Under the pieces are notes generated by a model that had not been told where the DNA came from, searched no databases, and was given only the letters and a program-made list of their open reading frames with translations. This document shows positions 1,507 through 62,800 of a stretch of DNA of 64,000 bases, piece after piece. The translations under genes and the position numbers were made by a program. Source of the stretch: Bacteroidales bacterium (GTDB lineage Bacteria > Bacteroidota > Bacteroidia > Bacteroidales > VadinHA17); NCBI GenBank assembly GCA_034004025.1, contig JAVEXM010000001.1:4203-68202 (forward strand). Direction: 5' to 3'. Position 1 is the stretch's first letter, and every line of letters starts with the position of its first letter.

Positions 1507-1661
1507 TCAGTCTTCAGCCTACAGTCACCAGTCTTCAGTCCTGACTGCCGACTGCCGACTGCGATTGCCGACTGCCGACTGCAACTGCCGACTGCCGACT
1601 GTCGACTGCAACTGCCGACTGCGATTGCCAACTGCCGCATGCGACTGCCGACTGCCGACTG
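1507..1661. repeat. CAGT/ACTG-core 6-7 nt microsatellite array, locus 1 (5 units in CAGT orientation, then 18 units in ACTG orientation)
   Basis: Hand-parsed units: tcagtct tcagcct acagtca ccagtct tcagtcc | tgactg ccgactg ccgactg cgattg ccgactg ccgactg caactg ... ccgactg ccgactg. The array starts 13 nt after the TAA stop at 1492-1494. Confidence 0.9.
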
Positions 1662-1736: not shown

Positions 1737-3179
1737 CTATTTACCTGCTGAATACCACGAGTTCTGCTCAAGGAGATTATTGACCTCCATCTCGCGGAAG
1801 GGTATGGGAAGTATAAGGTTACCGGCATCGTATGCAAAGCCACCGATATTCATCTCCCACCTCTTGAGGTCATGCAGACGGTGCCCTTCCCAGCAAAGTT
1901 CGAGGTATCTCTCCTCCCTTATCTGTTCCCGGGTCACTTCCGTAGTGTAAAGTGGCGCCTCGGCCCTGTCGCGGATAATGTTGATATCCTCTGTCGGGGT
2001 GTTCGGACCTACGTCTGCTGCAGGATTTTCGAAGTTGGCCTCTGCCCTTATGAGGTACATCTCAGCGAGCCTGATGAGGGGAATATTCCTATAGTAGTCG
2101 CCCCACTTGGAAGTGTTGATCCCACCATTGTTGAGGATTGTTCCAACACCCTTGTAATACATCATCGTGATATTATCGATAGTATATCCTGTCTCGGTAT
2201 CAGACTGATACATACCTCGAAGGTCAGACGGAGCGAACCTGTTGAGAAACACCTGCTGGATCTCATAGTCTCCCCTGCCTGCGCCGGCCAGGGATGCATA
2301 CATCACAGGCAGCCATCCAATGCTTGAGTTTATGTTCTTCTGAATGGCGAAGATGTCCTCAACCGAATTCTCTGCATTGTTGAAGGCTCCCAGTGGAGTA
2401 GCCGTCAGTCCGAACAGATCACTCTCTATGACCCTGTTGGCTTCATTGGCTGCCGAGGCCATGTTTCCCGTCTGGAGGTACAGCCTGGCAAGCACGGCGC
2501 TTGCTGTCATTGATGAGGCATAGACGCCGTTTTCGTCAGGCAGCAGGTCGCGTGCAGCGATGAGGTCCTGTTCCGCTCTCAGATAGCACTCCTCCACACT
2601 GTTCCTTGGCACCGGTACAGCATCTGCCACATCACTGGTGGGGGTCAGCACAATGGGAATACCCGGCTGGTTGTTTGACTGATTTGGCTCATAGGGAAGT
2701 CCGAAGATCCTGGTCAGTTCGAATATAGTCCAGCCCCTGAGGAACAGAGCCTCACCCTTAACCAGGTCGGCATCGTCGCTGTCCAGCAGCGCAATGACAT
2801 CATCCTGCAACAGTGTATTGCATGTGTTAATGAGACTGTAGGCCTCTGTCCAGGTATATTCAACGAAGCTGTTTGTTGTAGTGGCTTCTTTGTTGATAAA
2901 CTCACGTGGCTGCTGATATGTGCCCATGAATTTCAGGTCTGTAGTTGCGGCATACAGTTCACTGTACTCATTTAAGTACGATCCGAAGATTCCGTCGCTG
3001 CTTGCCTGGAGGTATGCACCCACCAGGGCAGCCTTTATGTTGTCAGGAGTGGTGAGGGCCACCTCTGCGTCGATTGACTGTTTTGGCTTAATCTCAAGCT
3101 TCTCTGTGCATGAGAACAGCATTGCCAATACCGGAACAATCAATATCCAGAATTTGTATTTGCTTATTATATTTTTCAT
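1737..3179 (-). CDS. SusD/RagB family nutrient-binding outer membrane lipoprotein
   Basis: 480 aa with a lipoprotein signal (..LAMLFSC TEK). It lies immediately downstream of a SusC-like gene, and its length and composition are typical of SusD-like proteins. Confidence 0.85.
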   Translation of the reverse strand: MKNIISKYKFWILIVPVLAMLFSCTEKLEIKPKQSIDAEVALTTPDNIKAALVGAYLQASSDGIFGSYLNEYSELYAATTDLKFMGTYQQPREFINKEATTTNSFVEYTWTEAYSLINTCNTLLQDDVIALLDSDDADLVKGEALFLRGWTIFELTRIFGLPYEPNQSNNQPGIPIVLTPTSDVADAVPVPRNSVEECYLRAEQDLIAARDLLPDENGVYASSMTASAVLARLYLQTGNMASAANEANRVIESDLFGLTATPLGAFNNAENSVEDIFAIQKNINSSIGWLPVMYASLAGAGRGDYEIQQVFLNRFAPSDLRGMYQSDTETGYTIDNITMMYYKGVGTILNNGGINTSKWGDYYRNIPLIRLAEMYLIRAEANFENPAADVGPNTPTEDINIIRDRAEAPLYTTEVTREQIREERYLELCWEGHRLHDLKRWEMNIGGFAYDAGNLILPIPFREMEVNNLLEQNSWYSAGK

Positions 3180-3197: not shown

Positions 3198-6100
3198 TTA
3201 GAATGAGAGGTTTATACCAAGAGTATAGGTCCTTGCCTGCGGTGCAGTGTAGAAATCATAACCCTGGATAATGTTGTTGTTCTGCGTTGACCTGCCGGCT
3301 CCCAGATAGTTTACTTCAGGGTCCCATCCCTTGTACTTTGTCAGCGTATAGAGGTTCTGAACGCCAACATAGACTCTTACTGAGGACATGTTAATCCGTG
3401 ACGTCAGACTCTTGGGCAGTGTATAACCCAGGTTCACGTTTCTGAACCTGACATATGAACCGTCTGAGAGATATCTGCTTGACTCCTTCGTGCCGTTTCC
3501 GTCGCCAAGGCGTGCCTGGGGCACATCTGTGATGTCGCCCGGCTGTTGCCATCTGTTCATCTGGTCCACCGTCTGGTTGTCAAACCAGTCGCCGTTGGCC
3601 GACTGGTAAACACCGGCACCGTTGTAGATTTCATTGCCGTATACAAAGCTGATAAGCACGTTGAGATCTATGCCTGCATATTCAAAGTAGTTGTTGAAAC
3701 CGCCTGTAAAGTCAGGGTTGGGCGATCCAACTATCTGCTTCTCGGCAATGTTGTAGTTGTTTGTTGTCTCATCGCTGTCGGCGCTGATATAGTAAAGGGC
3801 ATCACCGTTTTCCGGATCCACACCTGCATATTTAACGATATTAAATACACCTATAGGCTGACCTTCCATAACATAGTTGATCGAGTTGGGTGTGATCTCA
3901 GGTCCGTTTATGTCGATGATGGTGTTCTTGTTAAACGCCATGTTGAAGTCTGTTGTCCAGATAAATTCACCGGTAAGGTTGTTTGAATGGATTGAGAATT
4001 CCACACCCTTGTTCTCCAGTTCACCCACGTTGCTCCAGACCCCTTCAAAGCCCGATGTTGCGGGAAGGGTTCTGTAAAGGAGCAGGTCAGTGGTTTTCTT
4101 CTGGTACCAGTCGAATTCACCTGTGATCCTGTTGTTAAAAAAGCCAAAGTCAAGGCCGAGGTTAAGCTGAGCGGTATTTTCCCATCCCAGTTCCCTGCTC
4201 TGCAGCTGCGTTACCTCCAGTCCTGTCCGACCGGCATAATTGACACCTGAATAGAGTGCAAGGTGGGCATAATCGGGAATTCCCGAGTTACCTGTGATAC
4301 CATAGCTGGCTCTTGCCTTCAGGTAGCTCAGGACATCCCTTATTCCTGACATGAAGTCCTCCTGGGTGATTATCCACCCGGCCGAGCCGGCAGGGAAGAA
4401 TCCGAACCTGTTGTCAATGCCGAATCTCGACGAACCGTCAACACGGCCGCTGAGGGTAAAGAAGTACTTTTCATTGATCTTGTAGTTTGCGCGTGCAAAG
4501 TAAGAGAGATATGAGGTAGCTTCCTCCCATCCACCGTAGGTAGTTACCTCGGCAGCGTTGCTTATGTTGGTAAAATCATCAGTAGGAAATCCTTTGCCGA
4601 CGATATCTGAACCAATGCTGTTTGACTGCTGGTATGACATACCTCCCACGAGGTTGATATGGTGAACGCCAAGCGTCTTTATATAGGTCAGGTAGTTTTC
4701 CCAGTTATAGTTGATAACCCTGACAGAACGGTTCTGTGCTTCACCTGCCGGTCCGCCGGTGATTGTCTCCCTGCCCCAGAAATTCTTCTCCCTAAGGTCA
4801 TATATGTCAGTACCAAACTCGCTCTTGAAGGAAAGGTCCTTATAAATCTTGTAGGCAGCATAGATGTTTGCCAGCGACCTGAACGATGTCTGGTTGTTGG
4901 TTTCGTCCCTGAGGGATATAAGGCTGTTATAATAAATGGTCTCAGTATTCAGCTCGCCTGTCTCCGGATCATAGACAGGGGTGAGGGGCGACTGTGCCAC
5001 GAGCTGCAGCGGGGTAGCGAATGCGTTGTCGTTCTGCACGCGTTCCATCTCAGTGCGGATGACGTTCATCTGCATGCCGAAGCTGAACTTTTCGGTAGCC
5101 TGCTGGTCAAGGTTGAGCCTTGCGCTCATCTTGTTCATGTTGTTGCCAAGAAGGATGCCTTTGGTATCGTCATATGAGAGGCCCGCATAATACCGGGTTT
5201 TTTCAGTACCACCAGATCCGGATACGTTGATCCTGTTGAGCGATCCTTTCTGAAAAGCCTCCTTCTGCCAGTCGGTATCGTAACCGTCATCCCATGTTGG
5301 GCCAACATACATTTCCCATATATCCTCCTTCGGAAGCCAATCCCATACCAGTCCGCCAACGGAGACGTTCTCCATGGACTCATTGAAGAGCTCAAGGTAC
5401 TGGTCGGCATTCAGCCACTCAACCATCCGGCTGGGCTCACTGATACCGGTAGTATACTGTACATCAAATTTTGTGGCACCCGCCTTGCCTCTCTTGGTCT
5501 GGATGATTACCACACCGTTTGAGGCCCTTGAGCCGTAGATGGCTGCTGCTGATGCATCCTTCAGGATCTGTATTGACTCCACATCAGTCATTGCAAGGTC
5601 AGCCAGCGGGCTGGTAGGCTGGTTCCCTGAATTGGAGAGGTTTTCTGCTGTGATAGGCACACCATCAACTACATACAGGGGCTGGTTGTTTGCTGAGACA
5701 GATGATGACCCACGGATCCTCATCTTCACCGTCTCGCCCAATTTTCCGCTGGCCTGCTCTATGAATACACCCGAGGTCTTACCCTGGATAGCCGACTCAA
5801 AGCTGGCAGAAGGGATCTCGGCTATACCCTTTGTCTCAACCTTGGTGATAGCTCCGGTGAGTTCCCTCTTAATGGCCGAACCATAACCAACGACAATGAC
5901 CTCATCAAGGCCCACATCATCAAGTTCCATAGTTACATTGATAACATTTCCGGTGCCGACCACAATTTCCTGTGACTTCATCCCTACATACCTGAAAACA
6001 AGGGTATTGCCAGGTTCTGCTGTGATGGAGTACTTTCCGTCCATGTCTGTGGCTGTTCCAACAGAGGTACCCTGGACAAGGACTGTGGCACCGATGACGG

Positions 6101-8449: not shown

Positions 8450-9868
8450 ATGAGGAAGGAGAATATCTGCAATCTTCTGGAAAAGAATCTGGGATACATA
8501 CCTACCGCGGATCAGTCCGACTGCATGCGTCTGCTCGCGGAATTCATCGTTGCCAATACCAATGATGTGATCTTCCTGTTGACCGGTTATGCCGGCACGG
8601 GCAAGACCAGCGTCATTGCCTCGCTGGTGAGCACTCTCACCACTCTTCGCCAGAAATCCGTTCTTCTCGCACCAACGGGCAGGGCCGCCAAGGTTCTGAA
8701 ATCCTATTCAGGCCAGGAGGCTCACACCATCCACCGGAAGATATACAGGCAGAAGTCGGCCACTGACGGGGTGGGCAAGTTCGTTCTTGACCGCAACCTT
8801 CATAAGGACACATATTTCATTGTGGATGAGTCGTCTATGATACCCGATGAATCATCTGACGGCTCAATGTTCGGCAGCGGGAAGCTGCTTGAGGATCTGC
8901 TGGAATATGTATATACCGGCCGCGACTGCAAGCTGGTGCTTGTGGGTGACGTGGCGCAGCTGCCGCCGGTGGGGTCGATTGTCAGTCCGGCCCTGGATGA
9001 GAATGTGCTTCGCGCCACCGGTTTTGCCCTTGAGACCTTCGAGCTGCGCCAGGTGATAAGGCAGAGCGAGGGTTCAGGCATACTGATGAATGCCACCGCC
9101 GTGAGGCAACAGGTGAACGACGGAGACCTGTCGGTGCCGGAACTGGTGCTGCAGCCATATAACGATATTGAGAGGCTGAGCGGCAATGACCTGATTGAAA
9201 GGCTCAGTGAGTCATATGACAGGTGCGGTACTGACGGTGCCATTGTAGTGGTCAACTCCAATAACCTGGCCAACAGGTATAACCAGGGAATCCGCAACCG
9301 TGTCTTTTACCGTGAGGAGGAGATAAGCACAGGTGACATCGTCATGGTTGTCAAGAATAATTATTACTGGCTCCGCGACGAGGAGAACAGTTCATTCATT
9401 GCCAACGGCGATATAGCCGAGGTGCGAAGGATCAGGAAATTCGAGGAGATGTACGGCCTGCACTATGCCGACATGACGCTCTGGTTTCGTGATGCGGAGT
9501 TGGAACTCGATGCCAAGGTGATGCTGGACACCCTCACTCTGCCCACCCCGTCACTCACTGCTGAGAAGTCGCGTGAGCTCTATTTCACCGTTCTGGCTGA
9601 TTATCCTGAAATACGGTCGAAGCGTAAACAGTTCGAGACGGTAAGGAACGACCCCTACTATAATGCCCTGCAGATCAAGTTCGCCTATGCCGTCACCTGC
9701 CACAAGTCGCAGGGCGGACAGTGGGAGAGGGTCTTTATTGACCAGGGTATGTTCAACCGGCAGGAGCCTACCATCGATTACCTGCGATGGTTTTACACGG
9801 CGCTGACAAGGGCGACGGAGAAGGTGTACCTGGTAAACTTCCCGGATAGCTGGTTCAGTCGGCAGTAG
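8450..9868 (+). CDS. RecD-like ATP-dependent DNA helicase (SF1)
   Basis: Walker A GYAGTGKTS, Walker B FIVDESSM, and C-terminal AYAVTCHKSQGGQW. I prefer the ATG at 8450 over the TTG at 8399 given by the ORF track. Confidence 0.8.
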   Translation: MRKENICNLLEKNLGYIPTADQSDCMRLLAEFIVANTNDVIFLLTGYAGTGKTSVIASLVSTLTTLRQKSVLLAPTGRAAKVLKSYSGQEAHTIHRKIYRQKSATDGVGKFVLDRNLHKDTYFIVDESSMIPDESSDGSMFGSGKLLEDLLEYVYTGRDCKLVLVGDVAQLPPVGSIVSPALDENVLRATGFALETFELRQVIRQSEGSGILMNATAVRQQVNDGDLSVPELVLQPYNDIERLSGNDLIERLSESYDRCGTDGAIVVVNSNNLANRYNQGIRNRVFYREEEISTGDIVMVVKNNYYWLRDEENSSFIANGDIAEVRRIRKFEEMYGLHYADMTLWFRDAELELDAKVMLDTLTLPTPSLTAEKSRELYFTVLADYPEIRSKRKQFETVRNDPYYNALQIKFAYAVTCHKSQGGQWERVFIDQGMFNRQEPTIDYLRWFYTALTRATEKVYLVNFPDSWFSRQ

Positions 9869-10034
9869 CAGTCGGCAGTCAGCAGTAGCAGTCGGCAGTC
9901 TGCAGTACCAGTCGGCAGTCAGCAGTACCAGTCGGCAGTCGGCAGTAGCAGTCGGCAGTAGCAGTCGGCAGTCAGCAGTACCAGTCGGCAGTCGGCAGTA
10001 GCAGTCGGCAGTCAGCAGTACCAGTCGGCAGTAG
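9856..10034. repeat. CAGT-core 6-7 nt microsatellite array, locus 2 (27 units)
   Basis: The units are cagtcgg (x12), cagtcag (x4), cagtctg (x1), cagtag (x6) and cagtac (x4). A 40-bp higher-order block (cagtcgg cagtcag cagtac cagtcgg cagtcgg cagtag) occurs at 9909-9948 and 9962-10001. The helicase TAG stop (9866-9868) lies inside unit 2. Confidence 0.9.
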
Positions 10035-10047
10035 TCGTTTCAGCGAC

Positions 10048-10113
10048 GAAATCGCAAATCGCACATCACAAATTCGTAAGTCAGACATCGCAAATCCCAA
10101 ATCGCAAATCCCT
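10048..10113. repeat. second heptamer array with an AAATC core (about 9 units)
   Basis: gaaatcg caaatcg cacatca caaattc gtaagtc agacatc gcaaatc ccaaatc gcaaatc. The 7-nt period holds throughout, and the array ends about 20 nt before the next ORF start. Confidence 0.8.
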
Positions 10114-16233: not shown

Positions 16234-18366
16234 ATGAGTGAAAACAAGGAAAAGGTCGAAAACAAAGAAAATGAAGACCTTAATTTAACAGAGAGCGGAG
16301 CTGAGAATAAGGGCACAGAAGAGGTTGCCGCGGAATCAACAACTGAAGAGGTGTCCGAAGAATCAACAACCGAAGAGGTTGCCGCAGAATCAGCACCCGA
16401 AGAGGTTGCTGCAGAATCAACAACCGAAGAGGTTGCCGCAGAATCAGCACCCGAAGAGGTGGTTACTGAGTCGGCAGGCGAGATGGTTGAAGAAGAGAAA
16501 CCCATCCTGAAGGAAAAGAAAGAAAAAAAGGTGAAGGCTGGAGATGCTGATGCTGCGGTAGCAGCGGCAGCAGCGGCGGCATCACCTGAAGAATTTGACT
16601 GGGACGCCTATGAAAAAGGAGGCTTCACGGCGCAGTCGAGCCGTGCTGACCAGGAGAAGCTCTACGAAGAGACTCTCTCAACAGTGGCTGTTGACGAGGT
16701 TGTCGAGGGCAAAGTGATCTCGATGAACAACCGCGAGGTAGTTATCAACATCGGGCAGAAGTCCGAGGGTGTTGTCAGTCTGAACGAATTCCGCTACAAT
16801 CCCGACCTCAAGGTTGGAGATATGGTGGAGGTTTATGTCGACAGCCAGGAAGACAAGAGGGGGCAGCTCGTTCTCTCGCACAAGAAGGCCAGGGCTTACA
16901 ATTCCTGGGACAGGGTCAACTCGGCCCTTGAGAACAATGAGATCATCACCGGTTACATCAAGTGCCGCACAAAGGGCGGTATGATTGTAGATGTCTTCGG
17001 CATAGAGTCGTTCCTGCCGGGTTCGCAGATAGATGTCAAGCCCATACGCGACTATGACGTCTATGTTGGCAAGACCATGGAGTTCAAGGTTGTAAAGATC
17101 AACCAGGAGTTCAAGAACGTTGTTGTTTCGCACAAGGCTCTCATTGAGGCCGAGCTTGAGCAGCAGAAGAAGGAGATCATCTCCAAGCTTGAAAAGGGAC
17201 AGGTCCTCGAGGGTACTGTCAAGAACATCACCTCCTACGGTGTATTCATTGATCTGGGCGGCGTTGACGGGCTCATTCACATCACCGATCTTTCATGGGG
17301 CAGGGTCAACCATCCCGAGGAGATTGTACAGCTTGACCAGAAGCTGAATGTGGTTATACTTGACTTTGATGACGACAAGAAGCGGATAGCTCTCGGGCTG
17401 AAGCAGCTTACGCCTCATCCGTGGGATTCGCTCAGTGAGACACTCAAGGTTGGTGACACCGTCAAGGGCAAGGTTGTTGTGATGGCCGATTACGGTGCCT
17501 TTGTAGAGATCACCACCGGTGTTGAGGGGCTCATTCATGTCTCTGAGATGTCATGGTCACAGCATCTTCGCAGTGCCCAGGAGTTCATGAAGGTAGGCGA
17601 CGAGGTTGATGCGGTGATACTCACCCTCGACCGTGAAGAGCGCAAGATGTCTCTGGGCATCAAGCAGCTTAAGCCCGACCCGTGGCAGAATATCGAACAG
17701 AAGTACAGCCTCAATTCGCGTCATAAGGCACGTGTCCGTAACTTCACCAACTTCGGCGTCTTTGTTGAGATTGAAGAGGGTGTCGACGGTCTGATACATA
17801 TTTCAGACCTCTCCTGGACAAAGAAGATCAAGCATCCTGCTGAGTTTACCTCCATTGATGCGGAGATCGATGTGGTTGTTCTTGAGATCGACAAGGATAA
17901 CAGGAGGCTCAGCCTGGGCCACAAGCAGCTCGAGGAGAACCCCTGGGACGTGTTCGAGGATCTCTTTACCGTTGATTCGGTGCATGAGGGAACAATAATT
18001 GAACTGTTTGACAAGGGTGCCATTATAGCTCTTCCTTACGGTGTTGAGGGGTTTGCAACTCCCAAGCACCTGGTCAAGGAAGACGGCACGGCAGCTGCCG
18101 CTGACGAGAAGCTCGATTTCAAGGTAATAGAGTTCAACAAGGGTGCCAAGAAGATCATCGTGTCACACAGCCGTATATATGAGGACGTGAAGAAGGGTAC
18201 CGAGACCGCATCAAAGAGGTCGGAGGCAGAAAATACAAGGAAGGCAACCCGCAAGATCAAGTCCAGTCTTGAGAAGACAACGCTCGGAGACATCAGTGAA
18301 CTGGCGGCCCTGAAGGAAGAGATGGAAGAAAAAGAGGCCAGAAGTATAGGTAAAAAGAAAAAATAA
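16234..18366 (+). CDS. rpsA: 30S ribosomal protein S1 with an acidic repeat-containing N-terminal extension
   Basis: 710 aa. From about aa 125 (EEFDWDAYEKGG...) it reads as a canonical six-S1-domain protein. The N-terminal 120 aa or so are extra. Confidence 0.9.
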   Translation: MSENKEKVENKENEDLNLTESGAENKGTEEVAAESTTEEVSEESTTEEVAAESAPEEVAAESTTEEVAAESAPEEVVTESAGEMVEEEKPILKEKKEKKVKAGDADAAVAAAAAAASPEEFDWDAYEKGGFTAQSSRADQEKLYEETLSTVAVDEVVEGKVISMNNREVVINIGQKSEGVVSLNEFRYNPDLKVGDMVEVYVDSQEDKRGQLVLSHKKARAYNSWDRVNSALENNEIITGYIKCRTKGGMIVDVFGIESFLPGSQIDVKPIRDYDVYVGKTMEFKVVKINQEFKNVVVSHKALIEAELEQQKKEIISKLEKGQVLEGTVKNITSYGVFIDLGGVDGLIHITDLSWGRVNHPEEIVQLDQKLNVVILDFDDDKKRIALGLKQLTPHPWDSLSETLKVGDTVKGKVVVMADYGAFVEITTGVEGLIHVSEMSWSQHLRSAQEFMKVGDEVDAVILTLDREERKMSLGIKQLKPDPWQNIEQKYSLNSRHKARVRNFTNFGVFVEIEEGVDGLIHISDLSWTKKIKHPAEFTSIDAEIDVVVLEIDKDNRRLSLGHKQLEENPWDVFEDLFTVDSVHEGTIIELFDKGAIIALPYGVEGFATPKHLVKEDGTAAAADEKLDFKVIEFNKGAKKIIVSHSRIYEDVKKGTETASKRSEAENTRKATRKIKSSLEKTTLGDISELAALKEEMEEKEARSIGKKKK
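16318..16479 (+). repeat. in-frame 27-bp x6 tandem repeat (EEVAAESTT / EEVAAESAP units) inside the rpsA 5' region
   Basis: Six consecutive 9-aa units, EEVAAESTT EEVSEESTT EEVAAESAP EEVAAESTT EEVAAESAP EEVVTESAG, parsed by hand from 16318. Confidence 0.9.
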
Positions 18367-25124: not shown

Positions 25125-25161
25125 CCCCTGAACAGATAAGTAAAAGATCGGTTGTTTAAAT

Positions 25162-25201
25162 ATGCAGAGGGTGTCAGCCTTGCGGCCGGCACCCTCTGCA
25201 T
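25162..25201. terminator. bidirectional terminator hairpin between the convergent siaC-like and ABC genes
   Basis: A perfect 12-bp stem, atgcagagggtg (25162-25173) with caccctctgcat (25190-25201), and a 16-nt GC-rich loop. It is followed by tttg. Confidence 0.75.
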
Positions 25202-25221
25202 TTGTAATTACCTCCAATTTG

Positions 25222-40807: not shown

Positions 40808-40831
40808 AACTCACATAAGGTAATAAGCCGG

Positions 40832-40859
40832 GGGTGTCTTGTAATTCAGAAAGACACCC
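40832..40859. terminator. bidirectional terminator hairpin between convergent genes
   Basis: A perfect 9-bp stem, gggtgtctt (40832-40840) with aagacaccc (40851-40859), and a 10-nt loop. The 3' flank tctttc is T-rich. Confidence 0.65.
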
Positions 40860-40863
40860 TCTT

Positions 40864-44581: not shown

Positions 44582-46243
44582 TTATCTGAGGAACTTCACC
44601 TGGAACTCTTCCCAGACCTCAGGTCCGAATTCCTCAAGAAGTCCATCCTTAAACTCACCTCCATCCTGTAAAACCACATGAGCATATCTTAAATCGCCGG
44701 TGCCTGGCATTACTGAGAGAAAATCCCTTATTCGAGCAAATTCCTCTTTCAGGTAATCGATATATTTTCCGGCTATGACCATCAGGCGTGATTCCTTCTC
44801 CCAGTTGTCAGCTTCGATGGCATAGATCCAGCCCTCATCATACGGTGAGCTGTTCATTATCCCGGCATCTGCTGCCAGCCTCTCATTCCTCATGACTATT
44901 CTGCCACTTACCGGAGATTTCAGATCAAGCTGTTTGCCGTTCTGAATCACAGACACCACATGCTCTCCCTTGCGTACCTTTTCTCCGGGGTCCTTCATCC
45001 TCAGGCGGGTTACAGACCCGGTGAGATGTTGCAGGAAGTCGTCAATGCCGATCCTCACCAGGCCATCTTTTTCCATGAAGGCCCATGTATGACCTTTATC
45101 AAACAATATTCCGGCAGGTGTGATCAAAGACTTCAGGCTGAATGCCACTGATGGCTTTTGCATGGGTGAGACGATCTCTTCTGCACCTGACCTGGTTAAC
45201 CGGTATATTGCGTATGCTGCTGATGTAACTGTCACAATCACAGCAAGGATCCAGAGCCAGGCCCTGAATATCGGACGACTGTCTCTGCCAGCCATTACCA
45301 TTGCCTGGTCAGTAACCAGTGCATCCCTTCTGTTCATGCCTTCCCCACGGGCAAGGGCGGTAAAGCCTGTTCCTGCCAGTATGGGCTGTCCGTCGACCAG
45401 TACATATTTTATCAGATCGGAGGGTGCTCCCGGGGCCGGATTTGCGGCTGAGGCAGCATAGATATTATTGCACAGGGCTTTCGGATACTTGCCAATATAG
45501 ACCCCTCTGCTGAAACTGTTGTAATCGGCATAGAACTGTTCAAAATAGTCCGACCTTGCATTATTGTTCACATCCACGGGTATTATTTGTATGCCATCAA
45601 CGAATCCCTGGCCTGTCGGATCGGTTATATCTGCCAGGCGGCAGAATGCTATTGACTGCGGGTTACTGTTGAGGGCAGCCGGAATATCTGCAGAGGAGAG
45701 CGAGGTTGTGGCTCCGACAAGAGCCGGATCTGTTTGAGTGAACCTTGAGAGAGCACTGACCACTGCTATGTCATCAGGTATTAAAATGTTGACGGGGGAG
45801 GGGTTCTCATTATTGAGCAGCTCACCCCAGGTGGGAGTACCCTCAGCAGTCAGAATGCCGACAAACCTACCGGGAGAGATTCCGCTTGCCGTGATGCCGG
45901 AAAGGAAAGGATTCGTTGCACTCATAACCGGAACAATCACATCGCGCCCGACAACTATTTTCCACGCAGCTGTCTTTTCGGCGTTCCCCGATGAATTGCC
46001 GGTGATGAACATAATGTCCGCGCCTGCAAACTCCTCTGACGGGAGAACGGTCACCTCTGCATCGGGGTACTTTGCCCGAAATCCTTCGACCCACATCTTT
46101 GTCAGGGTCTCAGTTTCCGGGGAAGTTGCAACGCTGACCAGGTTTACAGGATTCTGAGCAGGTTCACTTTTGCTCTTCTGGCCGGCCATGATGCCGAAGT
46201 GAAGCATAATCAGGCATATCGTCAAAGGAATAATTCTTTTCAT
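44582..46243 (-). CDS. signal peptide + periplasmic PBP-like (PstS/phosphate-binding-type) domain + single TM helix + cytoplasmic GcvH-like domain fusion protein
   Basis: 553 aa with an N-terminal signal and a TM helix at about aa 325-347 (IFRAWLWILAVIVTVTSAAYAIY). The C-terminal part (GHTWAFMEKDGLVRIGIDDFLQHLTGSV...KSPVSGRIV...SSPYDEGWIYAIE) tracks the glycine-cleavage H-protein pattern. The PBP assignment is weaker and rests on resemblance only. Confidence 0.6.
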   Translation of the reverse strand: MKRIIPLTICLIMLHFGIMAGQKSKSEPAQNPVNLVSVATSPETETLTKMWVEGFRAKYPDAEVTVLPSEEFAGADIMFITGNSSGNAEKTAAWKIVVGRDVIVPVMSATNPFLSGITASGISPGRFVGILTAEGTPTWGELLNNENPSPVNILIPDDIAVVSALSRFTQTDPALVGATTSLSSADIPAALNSNPQSIAFCRLADITDPTGQGFVDGIQIIPVDVNNNARSDYFEQFYADYNSFSRGVYIGKYPKALCNNIYAASAANPAPGAPSDLIKYVLVDGQPILAGTGFTALARGEGMNRRDALVTDQAMVMAGRDSRPIFRAWLWILAVIVTVTSAAYAIYRLTRSGAEEIVSPMQKPSVAFSLKSLITPAGILFDKGHTWAFMEKDGLVRIGIDDFLQHLTGSVTRLRMKDPGEKVRKGEHVVSVIQNGKQLDLKSPVSGRIVMRNERLAADAGIMNSSPYDEGWIYAIEADNWEKESRLMVIAGKYIDYLKEEFARIRDFLSVMPGTGDLRYAHVVLQDGGEFKDGLLEEFGPEVWEEFQVKFLR

Positions 46244-46587
46244 ATCATTGATTGTTGATGTATTACACTATTCTATAACGCCTGTCCAATATGCATGCCA
46301 AACATTATAATGAAATGATAATGAGGGATATAGAATGTAATATGATATCTTCAGGCCGACGGTAAGTGTTGAAATAATATACAATTAGTATTAATGATTA
46401 ATATAAATAACAGAGAATAAACAAGTTAGAACTATGTGTAAAATATATACATGTGTTTAATATTACAACACTCTTAAAAATCCCAGAACGTAAGTAAATT
46501 ATATTCAATCATATAGAATGTCAACAAAGATCAGCAGCAATTTCTGATCATTTTTGATTCGGGAGTAGGTTGCGTTCCTGCTTTTTT

Positions 46588-46595
46588 TATATTTG
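46588..46595 (+). promoter_or_regulatory. Bacteroidota -7 promoter motif (TAnnTTTG) upstream of zwf
   Basis: TATATTTG at 46588-46595, 113 nt upstream of the zwf ATG. Confidence 0.4.
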
Positions 46596-46707
46596 TTACT
46601 GTTACCAGGCTGTGCTAAGCGGTTGAAAATCCTGTAATTTCAGGTATTCGGGCGAACAGGGGTCAGCTACCGGAGAGGATGTGAATTGGCAAATAAAACA
46701 CAAATGA

Positions 46708-48989: not shown

Positions 48990-49019
48990 TCACACTACAA
49001 TCAAACTAACCAACTCTAT

Positions 49020-50497: not shown

Positions 50498-51934
50498 ATG
50501 AATGATGTTTCCCAGTTTTCAGCAGGTGTCTCGGTGCTTGAGATAACCTATATAATTGCCTCTGTCTTTTTCATCCTCGGATTGAAGATGCTCAGTCATC
50601 CCCTCACGGCAAGGAGGGGCAATATTATTGCTGCCATCGGCATGATCCTGGCCATTGCTGCCACCATACTGTTCCACCAGAAAGATGGGGCACCGATTGG
50701 CAATATAGGATGGATCCTGGCCGCCATGATTATCGGTACCGCCATCGGATGGATCATAGCCGTAAAGGTGAAGATGACAGCGATGCCTCAGCTGGTCTCT
50801 TTCTTTAACGGTATGGGAGGCGCTGCCGCTGCCCTCATATCAATGATGGAGTTCCCGCACATCAGCAGCGAACTTATTGCACGAACAGGCATGGCTAACG
50901 GTCATGTCCTGGCTATACTTCTGGGCCTGGTGATTGGGTCGGTCTCATGGTCCGGCAGCATGATCGCCTTTGGTAAGCTTGACGGCTGGATAGGTGATCT
51001 GAGGGTCAAGGCAATGAAATATGTCAATGTTACGATCCTGGTTTTTATAATCGCCTTTATTGCTTACATAATGACCCGTGACGTACAGGCCTCCTCGGAG
51101 CTGACTCCCCTGATACTGATTCTCTTTGCCGTTGCTGTTGCCTACGGGGTGCTCTTCGTGATGCCCATCGGCGGTGCTGACATGCCGGTGGTGATATCGC
51201 TGCTCAACAGCTTCACCGGCGTAGCGGCAGCTATGGGCGGATTCCTCTACAGTAACCAGGCGATGCTTACCGGCGGGATACTTGTCGGATCAGCAGGAAC
51301 CATACTCACAATACTGATGTGCCGCGCCATGAACCGCTCACTGCTCAATGTCATCGTCGGTGTCTTCGGTGGCGGCGGAGCGGCCGCAGCAGCAGAGGGT
51401 GGCACCGTAAAGGAGATAACCGTGTCAGACGCCGCCGTGCTGCTAAGCTATTCAAAGAAGGTGGTGATAGTGCCGGGCTACGGACTGGCAGTGGCACAGG
51501 CACAGCATATATGCCATGAGCTGGACAAGCTTCTGGATGAGAAAGGGGTGGAGGTGAAGTATGCAATTCACCCTGTGGCAGGACGTATGCCCGGCCATAT
51601 GAACGTACTGATGGCTGAGGCCGATGTTCCCTATGAACAGCTGGTTGAGAGCGACGAGGTCAATCCCGACCTTCCCAACACCGACGTGATCGTGGTCATC
51701 GGTGCCAATGACGTTGTTAACCCGGCCGCCGAGGATGATCCTTCGAGCCCGATCTTCGGTATGCCCATCGTAAGGGCACGTGACGCCAGAAACATCATCG
51801 TCATGAAGCGGGGAATGGGTAAGGGCTACGCTGCCATAGAGAACATGCTCTTTTTCAACGACAAGACCCGAATGCTCTTCGGTGATGCCAAGAGCACACT
51901 GCAGGCACTGGTTACGGAGGTAAAGGCGTTGTAG
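50498..51934 (+). CDS. pntB: NAD(P) transhydrogenase subunit beta
   Basis: 478 aa with a polytopic N-terminal part and a C-terminal dIII domain (VPGYGLAVAQAQH...GANDVVNPAA). Confidence 0.9.
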   Translation: MNDVSQFSAGVSVLEITYIIASVFFILGLKMLSHPLTARRGNIIAAIGMILAIAATILFHQKDGAPIGNIGWILAAMIIGTAIGWIIAVKVKMTAMPQLVSFFNGMGGAAAALISMMEFPHISSELIARTGMANGHVLAILLGLVIGSVSWSGSMIAFGKLDGWIGDLRVKAMKYVNVTILVFIIAFIAYIMTRDVQASSELTPLILILFAVAVAYGVLFVMPIGGADMPVVISLLNSFTGVAAAMGGFLYSNQAMLTGGILVGSAGTILTILMCRAMNRSLLNVIVGVFGGGGAAAAAEGGTVKEITVSDAAVLLSYSKKVVIVPGYGLAVAQAQHICHELDKLLDEKGVEVKYAIHPVAGRMPGHMNVLMAEADVPYEQLVESDEVNPDLPNTDVIVVIGANDVVNPAAEDDPSSPIFGMPIVRARDARNIIVMKRGMGKGYAAIENMLFFNDKTRMLFGDAKSTLQALVTEVKAL

Positions 51935-51936
51935 GG

Positions 51937-52031
51937 CAGTCGGCAGTCAGCAGTCGGCAGTCGGCAGTCGGCAGTCGGCAGTCAGTAACTAATTGATTGA
52001 CTGCCGACTGAAGGCTGAAGACTGAAGACTG
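51937..52031. repeat. CAGT/ACTG-core heptamer array, locus 3 (7 CAGT-oriented units, 12-nt spacer, 5 ACTG-oriented units) forming a 13-bp perfect hairpin
   Basis: cagtcgg cagtcag cagtcgg x4 cagtcag | taactaattgat | tgactg ccgactg aaggctg aagactg aagactg. The stem pairs 51972-51984 with 51998-52010. The array begins 3 nt after the pntB stop and ends 1 nt before the stop of the convergent gene. Confidence 0.9.
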
Positions 52032-52032
52032 A

Positions 52033-53139
52033 CTATCTCGCCAGATCCTTAATGACGTCAGAAATGTGCCCCCAATACCTTTTGTGGAACTTCAGGCTCT
52101 TTTTGCCCAGCATTGAATGATATGTCTGCGGCTCGTCTTCCGGGGCGAATTTAACTTTTGCACGGTCTTCATACAGTGATGACACCTCGGGGTGAAACTG
52201 CACCGCAAAGACATTCGGATACCTGACATGGGCTATCCCCTCTACCACCTTGCCATCCATCGAGAGGGCGGTAATATCAAAACAGAGAGCCACATTTTTT
52301 ACAGACTGGTGATGATGGCTGTAAACAAGTGGCTGAATGCTTCGCGATACCTTTACGGTTTTCCCGAAGAATCCGTGCTCAGTGAACCTGACCGGATGAA
52401 TGCTGCTGCTCATGTAGTCAGGACCTTCCTTCACTTTCTGCCAGTTGTTCCGATGCTGGTTGTCACGGTCGATCAGTACATGTGTCTCCGGCCTGTAGCT
52501 ACCGTATATCTGTGCAGGGATATCCTGGTACAGGGTGCCACCGGCAGCCACGTTCATTGTCTGCATCCCCAGGCAGAAGCCTGTTACCAGGTAGTCAGGC
52601 TTTTCAGTGAGCAACGGTGTGTAGGTTGTGTTCCGTGTGCTTCCCAGAAGATGAAACAGAAAGGTTACCTCAAAAAAATGTCTCCCCGGGTCACCGGTCT
52701 CGGAATACCAGTTTTCCTCACCGTAGACTGACGGAGGAATGTCCTCTCCTCCAAAGAAGAGGACTCCTACGGAATTTTTGAAAATCAGACGGAGGTCGTC
52801 ACTGCATGGGTTCTCCCTGTAAAGAAGATCCTCTGTAAGCGGTCCCTTGACTTCGTGAAGGTGATAATCCTTCATGCCGACGGAATCGATATACTTTGCC
52901 GATTTGGAGAAATCGTATTTCTGACTGGAGTGCCAGACACCCACAAAATCTATAATGTCGGTATTAATATCAAGCAGTCCGTTTTTCACAAGGTAATCAA
53001 CAACTCCGATGTTACCGACGGTTGGGTTTACCAGGATGACATAATCTTTCTCCCTGCTGAACTCTGCACGGAAGAAGTTCTGTGCGGAGAGAGGGATAAA
53101 CAGCGAGAAAATCGCCAGGCAGAGGAACAGTTTTTTCAT
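52033..53139 (-). CDS. exported class-I glutamine amidotransferase-like / peptidase C26 (gamma-glutamyl hydrolase-type) protein
   Basis: 368 aa with a signal peptide (MKKLFLCLAIFSLFIPLSAQ). It has the nucleophile region GFCLGMQTMNVAAGG, then HHQSV and QFHPE. Confidence 0.7.
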   Translation of the reverse strand: MKKLFLCLAIFSLFIPLSAQNFFRAEFSREKDYVILVNPTVGNIGVVDYLVKNGLLDINTDIIDFVGVWHSSQKYDFSKSAKYIDSVGMKDYHLHEVKGPLTEDLLYRENPCSDDLRLIFKNSVGVLFFGGEDIPPSVYGEENWYSETGDPGRHFFEVTFLFHLLGSTRNTTYTPLLTEKPDYLVTGFCLGMQTMNVAAGGTLYQDIPAQIYGSYRPETHVLIDRDNQHRNNWQKVKEGPDYMSSSIHPVRFTEHGFFGKTVKVSRSIQPLVYSHHHQSVKNVALCFDITALSMDGKVVEGIAHVRYPNVFAVQFHPEVSSLYEDRAKVKFAPEDEPQTYHSMLGKKSLKFHKRYWGHISDVIKDLAR

Positions 53140-58567: not shown

Positions 58568-59830
58568 ATGAAATCCATATTATATATGTTTTTTGTCCTG
58601 CTCCTGGCAGGATTCACCGCATGTGCCCCGAAGTCTGATCCCGGTCATAAATCAGATGAGGAACATGACCATGAGACTGTAACCACCGGTGCCCATGAGG
58701 ATGAACATGACCATGCGACTCTCACCACCGGTGCAGACGGGGATGAACATGACCATGCGACTCTCACCACCGGTGCGGACGGGGATGAATATGACCATAC
58801 AACTCTCGCCACCGGTGCGGATGATCATGAAACTGCGCATTTTGAGATCCTGACTATCACGAGGCAACCATTTTCTTTTGTTTTGAAGACCGGAGGCCGG
58901 ATCATGGCCGATAACCGGGATCTGGTCACGATCACTTCCAAATCATCAGGACTGGTGAAGTTCAGTGAGGATTTTTTACTTCCGGGAGTGAAGGTTGCGC
59001 GAGGAGAGTCGCTCTTTACCGTTGCCGGCGAACAGCTGGCAGATGATAACACGGATCTTAGATTCCGGCAGATCAAGTCTGATCTGGACCGTGCCAGAAT
59101 GAATTTTGAAAGGGCCGAAAAGCTTATTGTCGAAAAGATAATAACAGAAGAACATTACCTTACGGTGAGGAATGAGTATGAAAAGATTCGTAGCGAGTAT
59201 GATAATATTGCGGCCACATACAGTACGGGTGGGAGCAGGATAATCGCGCCGGCTGATGGCTACATTCGCGACATTCATGTTGCCGAGGGTCAGAAGGTCA
59301 CTGCAGGTCAGCCTCTGGCAACGGTGATATCAGGGCGCAGGCTTGTTCTCAGGGCTGATGTCAGGCCCGATGACCTCTCCACCGTTACATCAGTGGTGAG
59401 TGCCAATTTCCGGGTTGGGTACAGTGACAAAATATTCAAAACCGTTGATATGAACGGCCGTAAGATATCCTACGGCAAGAGTACGGGTGAGAGTTCTTTC
59501 TTAATCCCTGTCTACTTCAGTATTGATTATGACCCGGAGCTTATCGAGGGGACATATGCTGAGGTTTATCTCATCGGCAGACAGACAACTGATGCCTTGA
59601 CGGTCCCTGACAGTGCGCTTATGGAGGAGTTCGGAAGACTCTACGTGTTTGTGGAGCATGAAGATGGCGATTTTGGCAAGAGGTACATCACCGCCGGCTA
59701 CAGTGACGGGGAAAAGACCCTGGTGCTTTCAGGGCTTACTGAGGGTGAACGTATAGTTGCTTCAGACACTTACCTGGTCAAGTTGTCTCAGATGTCTTCC
59801 TCTGCGCCGGCACACAGTCACACCCATTAA
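58568..59830 (+). CDS. efflux RND transporter periplasmic adaptor (membrane fusion) lipoprotein with a His/Asp-rich N-terminal repeat
   Basis: 420 aa with the lipobox LLAGFTAC. The coiled-coil/barrel-sandwich body is typical of CzcB/CusB-like adaptors, and it is followed by a CzcA/CusA-type gene. Confidence 0.85.
   Translation: MKSILYMFFVLLLAGFTACAPKSDPGHKSDEEHDHETVTTGAHEDEHDHATLTTGADGDEHDHATLTTGADGDEYDHTTLATGADDHETAHFEILTITRQPFSFVLKTGGRIMADNRDLVTITSKSSGLVKFSEDFLLPGVKVARGESLFTVAGEQLADDNTDLRFRQIKSDLDRARMNFERAEKLIVEKIITEEHYLTVRNEYEKIRSEYDNIAATYSTGGSRIIAPADGYIRDIHVAEGQKVTAGQPLATVISGRRLVLRADVRPDDLSTVTSVVSANFRVGYSDKIFKTVDMNGRKISYGKSTGESSFLIPVYFSIDYDPELIEGTYAEVYLIGRQTTDALTVPDSALMEEFGRLYVFVEHEDGDFGKRYITAGYSDGEKTLVLSGLTEGERIVASDTYLVKLSQMSSSAPAHSHTH
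58655..58822 (+). repeat. in-frame 42-bp x4 tandem repeat encoding (D/G)(D/E)EHDH(A/E)T(L/V)TTGA(D/H)
   Basis: Units are DEEHDHETVTTGAH, EDEHDHATLTTGAD, GDEHDHATLTTGAD and GDEYDHTTLATGAD (aa 30-85 of the adaptor). Confidence 0.9.
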
Positions 59831-59841
59831 TCTGATTGACA

Positions 59842-62800
59842 ATGCTTGATAAAATAATTGACTTTTCCTTAAGGAACAGGCTGAGCATCGTTATAGGAGC
59901 TCTTCTGCTGATCATAACCGGTACTGTAGTCACAACCCGGATGGAGATCGATATCTTCCCCGAGCTGACGGCCCCCACTGTTGTAGTAATGACCGAGGCC
60001 AGCGGTATGGCACCGGAAGAGGTTGAAACACTGGTCTCATTCCCTATAGAAACGGCAGTCAACGGAGCAACTTCTATAAGGCGTGTAAGATCTACGTCAA
60101 CAATGGGTTTTTCGATTGTATTCGTCGAATTCGACTGGGGGACGGATATCTACAAAGCACGGCAGACAGTGGCAGAACGCCTTATCCAGGCAAACGCCAA
60201 ACTGCCTGAAGGGATTGAAAAGCCGGTCATTGCCCCGCAGACATCACTTCTGGGTGAGATGATGATCATTGCACTTGAATCGGATACGCTGACTCCCATG
60301 GAGCTCAGAACGATGGCTGACTGGACCGTGGCACCCAGACTGCTTGCAGTCGGAGGAGTGGCACAGGTAAATGTGATTGGCGGGGATATAAAGGAATATC
60401 AGATCCTTGCAGATCCCCTAAAGATGGATTTCTTCGGAGTAACCATGAGTGAACTGGTTGAGGCTAGCAAAGGGCTGAATACCAACACTTCAGGGTCATT
60501 CATCAATCAATACGGCAACAAGTATATCGTCAGAGGCATGGCGAGAAGCGACCGGCTTTCCGATCTGGCTAATTCGGTCATTAAAGTGTCGGGAAGCACG
60601 CCTGTCAGAATAGGTGACATCGCTTCAGTTGAAATCGGCAGTGCTCCTGCTATAGGAACGGCATCTTACCGCGGAAGAAGTGCAGTGCTGTTGACGGTTA
60701 CAAGACAGCCTGATGCAAACACCGTGGCCCTGGCCGACAATATTGGTGCAGTTATCAATGACATACAGTCCAATGCAGGCTCATCGGTCACTTTTCACGA
60801 TGATATATACAACCAGGCAGAATTCATTAATACCTCCGTCAGGAATGTGCTGAAGGCGCTGCTTGAAGGCGGAATATTCGTGGTAATCATTCTGTTTCTT
60901 TTCCTCTTCAATGTCAGGACTACCGTCATCTCTCTTCTTGCAATGCCGCTGTCGCTTCTTGTGGCCGTTATCACCCTTAAAGCTCTTGGCTATACGGTTA
61001 ATACAATGAGTCTTGGCGGTATGGCCATAGCGATCGGGTCATTGGTTGATGACGCGATCATTGACGTTGAGAACATATACAGGCAACTGCGCAAAAACGT
61101 TCTTTTACCTCCGGAAAAAAGGGAGCCAACAACAAGGGTTGTTTTCAGGGCATCATCTGAAGTAAGATCGTCAATCTGGAATGCCACGCTTATTATCATC
61201 ATTACATTTGTTCCGCTGTTTTTCCTTGGTGATCTTGAGGGAAGAATGCTGAGACCGCTGGGGATTTCCTTCATTGTATCTTTGTTTGCCTCGCTTATTG
61301 TTGCTGTCACTCTGACGCCGGTATTGAGCAGTTATTTTCTCACTGATGAAAAACGACTTCTGCGGGCAGTGAACGGCTCGTGGACTGAAAGGAATCTGGG
61401 CAGAATCTACCGCAGGGCACTTCAATTCACCTTAAACAGAAGCAGATGGCTGATAGGACTGACGGCAGCCCTCTTCCTGATATCCGTTTTGATGCTTTCA
61501 AGAGCAGGAAGTTCCTTTCTCCCAAACTTCAATGAGGGGGCGCTGACTGTAAACATATCACTCACTCCCGGCGTATCGCTGGAGGAGTCGGCCAGGATAG
61601 GCGTCAGGGCACAGGAAATATTGCTCGGTATTCCCGAAGTCACCACCGTAGCCTGCAAGACGGGGAGGGCCGAACTGGCCGAGCATTTCTTCGGTGAGAA
61701 TATGTCCGAACTGGATGTTCCCTTTGTGCTTGCCGACAGAAGCAGGGAGGAGTTTTTTGCAGATGTCCGTGAGAGACTCCGGCAAATACCCGGTGCAAGC
61801 ATAGAAGTCGGACAGCCCATAACCCACAGGATGGACAGGATGCTGTCAGGTACCAAGGCTAACATTGCCATCAAGCTTTTCGGAGATGATCTTAACGATC
61901 TTTACTCAACGGCAAACCTCATTAAATCTGAAATTGAAGATATTCCCGGAATAGGCGACCTGAACGTGGAGCAACTGATTGAAACGCCGCAGCTGAAAAT
62001 AAAACCTCGCCGGGAGATGCTTGCAAACTACGGCATTGACATGAACAGCTTTAACTCTTATATAACCTATGCTATAGGGGGACAGGCTGTATCCGATGTT
62101 TATGAAGAGGAGAGGCGGTTCCCGATAGTTGTCAGGCTGGATGATGAATACAGGGGCACAATGGAAGGTATCCGCAGCTCACTCATCGATACTCATGACG
62201 GCAGGAAAGTGCCACTGTCATCTGTTGCCGATATAGAATCCTCATCGGGACCCTCTTCAATCAACCGTGAGAATGTAAAGCGGAGGATCGTCATCTCGGT
62301 CAATACTGACGGGCGCGACGTAGGCAGTGTGGTTCGGGATATCAGGGAGAGGATAAACGAAGAGGTAACGCTGCCCCGGAATTACCACATTGAGTACGGC
62401 GGACAGTTTGAAAGCGCAGAAAATGCCGCCAGACGACTGTTGGCAACATCGGTGATCGCACTTCTCGTCATATTTTTGATCCTTTACCAGGAGTTTAAGA
62501 ACAGTTCCCTGGCTCTGATTGTGCTCCTGAACCTTCCGCTGGCCCTTATTGGCGGGATAATTGCCATTAAGCTCTCGTCCAATGTTGTGAGTATACCCTC
62601 AATTATCGGATTCATCACACTTTTCGGCATCGCTACCAGGAACGGCATACTGTTGATCTCAAGATATATTCACCTCAAGCAGGAGGGGAGGACTCTTCGT
62701 GAACGGATTATTTCCGGGTCGACTGACAGGCTCAACGCGATACTGATGACAGCCCTGACAGCGGCGCTGGCCCTTATACCCCTTGCCATTGGAGGAGACA

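Follow-up and report, generated by a model that had tools for sequence, protein, structure and literature searches.

What are the tandem heptanucleotide arrays that sit at gene ends in this DNA, why are their units seven bases long, and do they act on the genes beside them? The window analyzed here is the whole 64,000-nucleotide stretch of contig JAVEXM010000001.1 (assembly GCA_034004025.1, positions 4,203 to 68,202) from a Bacteroidales bacterium. The array at positions 1507–1661 (locus 1) had been taken, in an original prediction, as one copy of an undescribed, lineage-specific extragenic repeat family that is functionally analogous to repetitive extragenic palindromic (REP) sequences and bacterial interspersed mosaic elements (BIME). 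The analysis places the window arrays, very probably, in the known class of heptanucleotide long simple sequence repeats (LSSR) and short tandemly repeated repetitive (STRR) sequences. The 7-nt copies stand head-to-tail beyond chance, they are non-coding, three loci share the unit, and the copy number varies. The account we prefer, with moderate confidence, is a composite one in which slippage-driven heptanucleotide microsatellites are tolerated in spacers and hairpins between facing blocks are a consequence. The features of the three loci are as follows.

1507–1541, plus strand: locus 1, left block, five CAGT-oriented heptamers of the TCAGTCT type (tcagtct, tcagcct, acagtca, ccagtct, tcagtcc); Tandem Repeats Finder (TRF) gives period 7 with 5.0 copies at 1506–1540.
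1542–1661, minus strand: locus 1, right block, 18 ACTG-oriented units, mainly ccgactg (GACTGCC on the plus strand, GGCAGTC type on the minus strand).
1683–1717, either strand: bidirectional terminator-like hairpin, A6-GGAGGG-12 nt-CCCTCC-T5, whose 11-bp stem folds on both strands; separate from the repeat.
9856–10032, plus strand: locus 2, 27 CAGT-core units in a 7/6/7 rhythm (CAGTCGG / CAGTCAG / CAGTAG / CAGTAC) with 20-nt and 53-nt super-units.
10049–10110, plus strand: second array at locus 2, the unrelated heptamer AAATCGC in 8.7 copies (TRF), upstream of a MatE-family gene.
51935–51983, plus strand: locus 3, left block, seven copies of GGCAGTC with 95% matches (TRF), beginning directly after the pntB stop codon (51932–51934).
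51984–51998, no strand: locus 3, A/T-rich spacer that forms the loop of the hairpin.
51999–52032, minus strand: locus 3, right block, GACTGCC, GACTGAA, GGCTGAA, GACTGAA, GACTGA(C), that is, GGCAGTC/TTCAGTC units on the minus strand.

The pattern CAGTN3CAGTN3CAGT matches 17 times in the 64-kb window compared to 0.01 matches expected from shuffles, and 17 of the 17 fall in loci 1–3. TRF reports period 7 at all three loci. The earlier parse of locus 1 into 23 units, five CAGT-oriented followed by 18 ACTG-oriented and starting 13 nt past a stop codon with a separate hairpin at 1683–1717, was exact on re-reading. The announced recurrences near 9.9 and 52 kb correspond to 9856–10032 and 51935–52032. 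Three window spacers share the unit, and the proposal of a dispersed extragenic repeat family made from a microsatellite stands.

The possibility that short-read assemblers produce or inflate such arrays was checked. Three contigs (L003, L007, and L009) stop inside or at arrays, and assembled copy numbers vary. However, when the flanking genes were located on other assemblies by exact-protein look-up, the same arrays with identical flanks were recovered in at least five independent assemblies from varied samples and pipelines (ENA, JGI, Logan, and NCBI metagenome-assembled genomes [MAGs]), and other taxa have analogous arrays in complete genomes, in long-read genomes, and in isolate genomes. 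We therefore take the arrays to be real and an assembly artefact to be extremely unlikely. Slippage polymorphism had been predicted, and array lengths do differ between assemblies by unit multiples. Locus 1 is 7 nt longer in L004 (one extra CCGACTG) and 27 nt shorter in L006 (four units fewer). At locus 2 the window carries 27 units, three other assemblies carry 16, and two carry 25, all with identical flanks, whereas locus 3 is identical in L001 and L002 wherever it is fully covered. The differences among same-strain assemblies (+7, −27, and −60 nt) are whole units or blocks of units, with the qualification that these copy numbers come from short-read assemblies, may be collapsed, and are uncertain as true counts. 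Heptamer arrays both break and collapse short-read assemblies, and they are useful as strain markers.

We infer from the unit-sized length differences that slipped-strand mispairing, or else unequal exchange among units, creates the arrays and changes their length, by one unit (7 nt) or by a multi-unit block (20, 27, or 60 nt) at a time. The arrays would be retained where additional non-coding DNA is nearly harmless, mostly right behind stop codons and between convergent genes, and would expand until they reach coding sequence. Expansion that halts at coding sequence would leave arrays that abut or supply stop codons. The unit sequence would be under no long-term constraint, and the same spacer in a related species could hold other heptamers or none. 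Facing blocks of opposite polarity allow either transcript, or single-stranded DNA, to fold into a long interrupted hairpin.

Locus 1 starts 12–13 nt past the TAA (1492–1494) of an xdh-like open reading frame (ORF; 34–1494) with molybdopterin-cofactor-binding domains. The right block includes six 6-mers (tgactg, cgattg twice, caactg twice, and cgactg), and TRF scores it at 147 for period 7 (17.7 copies at 1543–1661) and at 173 for period 20, with a 27-nt period as well. The array fold is irregular compared to that of locus 3 (z scores −3.4 and −6.6), and (GGCAGUC)n can in part pair with itself by way of G-U pairs. The terminator-like hairpin begins 21 nt beyond the end of the array and precedes the stop codon of a convergent SusD-like gene (1737–3179). 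Because this canonical bidirectional hairpin adjoins the array, termination does not explain the array at locus 1, in agreement with the original prediction. The locus 1 array would be a passenger in the 3′ untranslated region, with the canonical terminator supplying the 3′ end.

Locus 2 overlaps a coding sequence. The first units of the array double as the final four codons and TAG stop codon (9866–9868) of an SF1 helicase gene (8450–9868). The overlap covers the first 13 nt only, and the stop codon lies within the second unit. A phase-variable contingency locus was considered and ruled out. The helicase is the identical 472-residue protein in assemblies with 16, 25, or 27 units, the variation lies downstream of the stop codon, and loci 1 and 3 follow stop codons. 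Since all helicase alleles give the same protein without a frame change, the length variation of locus 2 is not phase variation. Folding revealed no complementary partner block at locus 2.

Locus 3 occupies the entire 98-nt stop-to-stop spacer between pntB and a convergent C26/class-I amidotransferase (GATase) gene (52033–53139), whose stop codon is abutted by the right block. The array folds into a hairpin that spans to both stop codons, with an apical stem of 13–18 bp followed by 5-bp CAGUC/GACUG helices separated by 2 × 2 internal loops. The RNA fold is −66 kcal/mol on the plus strand (z = −7.8) and −50 kcal/mol on the minus strand (z = −5.5), and the DNA fold is −31 kcal/mol (z = −5.8), all compared to shuffles. 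This hairpin is the sole stem-loop in the spacer. Neither strand has a U or T tract after the stem (CTATCTC on plus, CCCTACA on minus), and for that reason an intrinsic, Rho-independent terminator was rejected at locus 3. The hairpin is instead probably a by-product 3′-end structure, one that would make polymerase pause or stop exonucleases although it has no U tract. We infer that any effect on RNA 3′ ends would probably matter only where other 3′ structure is absent, as at locus 3.

The locus 3 fold raises the alternative that the interrupted hairpin is a selected 3′-end module, kept between convergent genes as a terminator, insulator, or mRNA stabilizer in the manner of REP hairpins, with the microsatellite being only the means of building and tuning the stem. 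A hairpin that fills its spacer and is the sole structure there fits this idea. The missing U tract does not, nor do the separate terminator at locus 1 and the lack of a partner block at locus 2. In addition, the variable bases of the window arms mismatch (TT against CC, GG against AA), which indicates that pairing is not optimized.

The orthologous spacer of related species bears on both the selection idea and the slippage idea. PntB was used to scan metagenomes, and 80 loci with identities of 79–94% were retrieved. Every lineage that has kept the convergent amidotransferase gene has a different spacer, with the following contents between pntB and the GATase gene.

L206 (PntB 94% identical): an inverted pair, (ATTTGCG)4–5...(CGCAAAT)5, with GACTGCC remnants.
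L131 (PntB 89% identical): (GGCAGCA)4...(CTACTGC)2–3.
L130 and L132: (GCAWGGR)n.
L134 and L139: (AAGAATT)n with (CCTCAGA)n or TGCCTAN.
L135–137: a 42-nt remnant.
L148: 5 nt.

More distant relatives have a different gene downstream of pntB and no array. One spacer has therefore been filled repeatedly by heptamer arrays of differing sequence in related species. Judged from these sequences, the period recurs across relatives and the inverted layout sometimes does, whereas the unit sequence does not, and the arrays are dispensable at the orthologous site. The L206 spacer folds better than shuffles (z = −3.8) and the L131 spacer does not (z = −1.6). An inverted layout with other units at the orthologous spacer, in L206 and L131, speaks for a selected stem; the relatives whose 5-nt or 42-nt spacer lacks a stem, and the modest L131 fold, speak against it. 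In L206 the opposite orientations at 3938–4164 bracket a 227-nt spacer and pair together. The (AAATCGC)n array at 10049–10110 of the window is complementary to the (ATTTGCG)n block on the flank of this pntB spacer in L206, the closest relative.

The spacer upstream of pntAA bears on the claim that the arrays are all tight against stop codons. The three window loci do touch stop codons, but relatives carry arrays directly upstream of the pntAA start codon, which makes a universal stop-codon rule a small-sample impression. These single arrays upstream of start codons also count against a selected 3′-end module. The short spacer before pntAA is a heptamer-array hot spot in the relatives, with units that vary by lineage: (AACTTTT)x16, (CTAAACT)x13, (AAATTCA)x7, and (AAACTCC)x4.6, at about 900–1020 in L133, L140, L146, L154, L156, L161, L183, and L209. 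The window spacer upstream of pntAA is 30 nt only (48990–49019).

An exact (GGCAGTC)3 scan of one genome per GTDB species was used to determine how widely the unit is distributed. At least 120 stretches matched in a dozen phyla. The genomes among the matches listed are labeled Acidobacteriota, Planctomycetota, Actinomycetota (with Streptomyces), Alphaproteobacteria/Rhizobiales, Cyanobacteria (Rivularia, Nostocales), Chloroflexota, Desulfobacterota, Poribacteria, and several Bacteroidota (with Rikenellaceae-type MAGs), besides others. No homology to the window was found among the at least 120 loci listed. The unit had been called lineage-specific, and this distribution overturns that description. 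Among the matches listed, 253 of 645 TRF rows near GGCAGTC arrays have period 7, compared to 6 with period 6 and 13 with period 8, and about half of the 253 are other heptamers, comprising about 100 different units. Period 7 is also the commonest in a motif-unbiased sample of 395 kb around pntB in relatives, where it accounts for 19 of 50 tandem arrays (TRF). Viral contigs served as a control. (GGCAGTC)3 matched 18 stretches, and control heptamers of the same composition matched 36 (GGCTGAC), 25 (GCAGGTC, which lacks the core), 2, 1, and 0. Same-composition controls are as common, so the GGCAGTC sequence is not special, and the idea that a CAGT/ACTG core is particularly repeat-prone (taken from STRR1/3 and the TAACTGA repeats) was ruled out. 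By this sequence comparison, GGCAGTC is one among many repeat-prone heptamers. In the same IMG/VR set, (GGCAGTC)3 lies on 17 viral contigs (L215–L232), and (GGCTGAC)n, with up to 12 or more units, lies on 35.

The positions of the arrays and the polarity of their blocks are more regular than their sequences. Of the spacers in the window, 2 of the 7 convergent and 1 of the 40 tandem ones hold an array, compared to none of the 7 divergent ones; the GTDB loci listed comprise 25 convergent, 50 tandem, and 7 divergent cases. Paired blocks always take the order (NNCAGTC)n...(GACTGNN)n, in 2 of 2 cases in the window and in 13 of 13 elsewhere with gaps below 60 nt (among the matches listed). A Rikenella-like MAG (L044) has the GGCAGTC...GACTGAR layout of locus 3. 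The paired blocks of other phyla are often perfect complements with stems of 30–40 bp, again among the matches listed. The G-rich strand of heptamer arrays is directed away from the nearest gene in a ratio of 108:47 (67:35 at 3′ ends and 41:12 at 5′ ends). The polarity is thus strict across phyla for paired blocks, and period 7 dominates even without motif selection; both regularities bear on the old question of why bacteria favor seven-base repeats and whether the repeats act.

Several simple causes of the polarity were tried and rejected. G-richness holds on average, at 108:47, but the TTCAGTC/GACTGAA arms in the window break it while keeping the CAGT-before-ACTG order. A sense strand that follows transcription of the upstream gene describes 5 of 5 window gene ends, yet locus 1 contradicts it, with the terminator standing between the long block and the SusD gene, and it shows no bias across the at least 120 loci listed (24 sense versus 16 antisense in tandem spacers). 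Stop-codon content does not discriminate, and a Rho utilization (rut) site is contradicted by the 5′-end cases.

The positional data supply the remaining support for a selected 3′-end module, namely the enrichment of arrays in convergent spacers, the perfectly complementary 30–40-bp stems listed from other phyla, and a G-rich 5′ arm with the polarity of the canonical terminators in the window. The other convergent spacers of the window hold ordinary GC hairpins followed by a T run. Two of them, 25125–25221 and 40808–40863, contain bidirectional terminator-like hairpins with G-rich 5′ arms, GCAGAGGGTGTCAGCC...GGCCGGCACCCTCTGC and GGGGGTGTCTT...AAGACACCCTC, and their polarity is that of the GGCAGTC/GACTGCC pairs. 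Taking both sides together, we consider a selected module unlikely.

A different function for the same regularities would be a binding platform in a 7-nt register, with cooperative RNA or single-stranded DNA sites occupied by an OB-fold or other protein at seven bases per monomer, from which a post-transcriptional or nucleoid-organizing role would follow. The strong preference for period 7 whatever the sequence, and the polarity relative to gene boundaries, speak for such a platform. Heptamer binding by CspB has been noted, S1, Csp, or CsrA have been proposed as candidates, the cold-shock protein and S1 as binders of TAACTGA repeats (PMC4679880), and a Nostoc study infers a heptamer-binding partner (bioRxiv 10.1101/2022.06.06.494920). 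However, a sequence-specific binder is hard to reconcile with units that vary freely from one relative or locus to the next, and the arrays are dispensable at the orthologous site. A binding platform is distinctly improbable.

Slippage in tolerant spacers remains the preferred reading of the arrays, and several observations weigh against it. Slippage does not account for the fixed order of paired blocks (2/2 in the window, 13/13 elsewhere) or for the G-rich-strand bias (108:47), and the polarity regularities together with period 7 hint at selection or a directional mechanism. Slippage alone leaves the preference for period 7 over 5, 6, or 8 unexplained. The inverted layout recurs at one spacer with differing units (the window, L206, and weakly L131), which could reflect selection of the stem. 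Part of the short-read length differences may be assembly collapse rather than polymorphism. In a bolder proposal, the arrays would be no passive microsatellites but self-renewing structure-building in intergenic DNA, with facing blocks kept paired and in fixed polarity and with the G-rich arm on the gene side. Behind this would stand a directional process that measures 7 nt, or a binding protein, common to bacterial phyla; concerted evolution would let the unit sequence drift, but period, polarity, and pairing would be preserved. We regard this proposal as quite unlikely. If true, the arrays would be functional analogues of REP elements that span phyla, and the STRR question, now 35 years old, would become more tractable.

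The genes of the window bear on a mobile origin. REP and BIME of Enterobacteria and Pseudomonas are imperfect palindromes of about 20–40 nt tied to REP-associated tyrosine (RAYT) transposases. The window arrays could likewise be mobile or domesticated elements, spread by a RAYT-type (Y1) transposase encoded elsewhere in the genome. They resemble REP/BIME in being extragenic, dispersed repeats with hairpin potential, often at 3′ ends and between convergent genes, where RNA stem-loops are possible, and a unit found in many phyla could suggest horizontal spread. In contrast to REP/BIME, the window unit is a 7-nt direct repeat that is not self-complementary; only whole blocks are inverted and palindromic to each other, and a REP/BIME-type unit was rejected for that reason. 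Length changes come in tandem units while the sites stay fixed, heptamers of the same composition are just as common, and about 100 units occur in neighboring arrays of other genomes (among the matches listed). The approximately 55 window ORFs are ordinary chromosomal genes and include no Y1/RAYT transposase, integrase, or reverse transcriptase. A REP-like mobile element is very improbable. For a purely functional analogy to REP/BIME, as first proposed, the evidence is mixed: the hairpin potential favors it, but the non-palindromic unit, the lack of a Y1/RAYT gene among the window ORFs, and the dispensable structure in relatives do not. A CRISPR array was also ruled out. CRISPR consists of direct repeats of 24–48 nt with unique spacers between them, whereas the window arrays are contiguous 6–7-nt units without spacers. 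No Rfam match (gathering thresholds), tRNA, or tmRNA was found in the window.

The window genes include SusC/SusD genes, by which the organism belongs in Bacteroidota, sugar-nucleotide synthesis, ribosomal protein S1, ClpB, the glycine cleavage system, G6PD/PGL/transhydrogenase, and a resistance-nodulation-division (RND) efflux pump. Some of these have features of their own. The S1 gene (16234–18366) encodes 710 residues with five S1 domains and an acidic N-terminal extension, which is an in-frame 27-nt repeat in 5.3 copies, (EEVAAESTT)n, at 16318–16460; S1 is one proposed heptamer-repeat binder in the literature (PMC4679880). The RND operon consists of a HlyD-family membrane-fusion lipoprotein gene (58568–59830), an AcrB-type pump (59836–62931), and an OEP gene (62906 to the end). 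The HlyD-family gene contains an in-frame 42-nt repeat in 3.8 copies at 58661–58821, a His/Asp-rich (DEHDHATLTTGADG)n tract that could bind metal. A 553-residue protein (44582–46243) has a glycine-cleavage H domain only at its C terminus (residues 381–500), behind a long N-terminal part without a domain assignment. The divergent spacer beside its gene (46244–46707) is unusually long at 464 nt and has no Rfam match.

Known repeat classes offer the closest comparisons. LSSR have units of 5–11 nt, are longer than expected, and are non-coding if the unit is not a multiple of three (PMC4679880, PMC4692102). As far as Mrazek et al. 2007 is reported in these two papers, heptanucleotides are the most abundant LSSR class in most prokaryotic genomes, and the mechanism proposed is polymerase slippage tied to a 7-nt contact. 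The window arrays do not differ from LSSR in kind; their unit and lineage are not specifically reported in the literature covered (PMC4692102, PMC4679880).

The GGGAATC arrays of Xanthomonas (Rehm et al. 2015, PMC4692102) number 70–75 pairs per genome "in convergent orientation" with stem-loop potential. They prefer the first 50 bp past a stop codon, overlap included, are scarce between divergent ORFs, and vary in length and sequence between close species (PMC4692102). The window arrays resemble them as dispersed intergenic 7-nt arrays of a few to tens of units, and the units themselves, GGGAATC and GGCAGTC, agree at 5 of 7 positions. They also share the depletion of divergent spacers, the proximity to stops or starts, and the convergent paired blocks. 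The Xanthomonas and Nostoc heptamers contain G3–4 tracts and form G-quadruplexes in vitro (PMC4692102). In contrast, GGCAGTC, TTCAGTC, CAGTAG, and AAATCGC have at most GG. A G-quadruplex-forming class, which calls for at least four consecutive G3+ tracts per array, was therefore rejected, and without a G3 tract the G-quadruplex rationale is inapplicable to the window units.

TAACTGA direct repeats occur in Beggiatoaceae, Cyanobacteria, and five Bacteroidetes, with up to 43 copies in Bacteroidetes (MacGregor 2015, PMC4679880). Other heptamer arrays occur alongside them, close relatives lack an array at the same site, and they are patchy across phyla. Most sets have 2–6 copies directly upstream of start codons, and translational control was suggested (PMC4679880). 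A Nostoc preprint infers a regulatory effect of promoter-proximal heptamers (bioRxiv 10.1101/2022.06.06.494920). The window arrays exceed these sets in length and are placed at gene 3′ ends, whereas the pntAA-upstream arrays are found in relatives.

Cyanobacterial STRR resemble the window arrays as dispersed, intergenic tandem heptanucleotides; in both, one genome holds several unit families, and no function is established. Their heptamer units are said to have been reported from Calothrix and Nostoc by Mazel and colleagues in 1990. On the opposite strand, GGGGACT reads (CAGTCCC)n, and the CAGTC pentamer is common to both families; the variable dinucleotide differs (CC/AA compared to GG/TT), as does the phylum. 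We found no evidence of common descent, and the viral-contig controls argue that a CAGT core is not specially favored. The Nostoc unit itself is GGGGA(C/T)T (PMC4692102). The description of the arrays as new is not borne out, since intergenic heptamer arrays with convergent pairs and stop-codon overlap are documented (PMC4692102, PMC4679880). The array architecture is already described, though not for this unit or lineage in the literature covered, and the window loci are another case of a known repeat class, here in an uncultured Bacteroidota genome.

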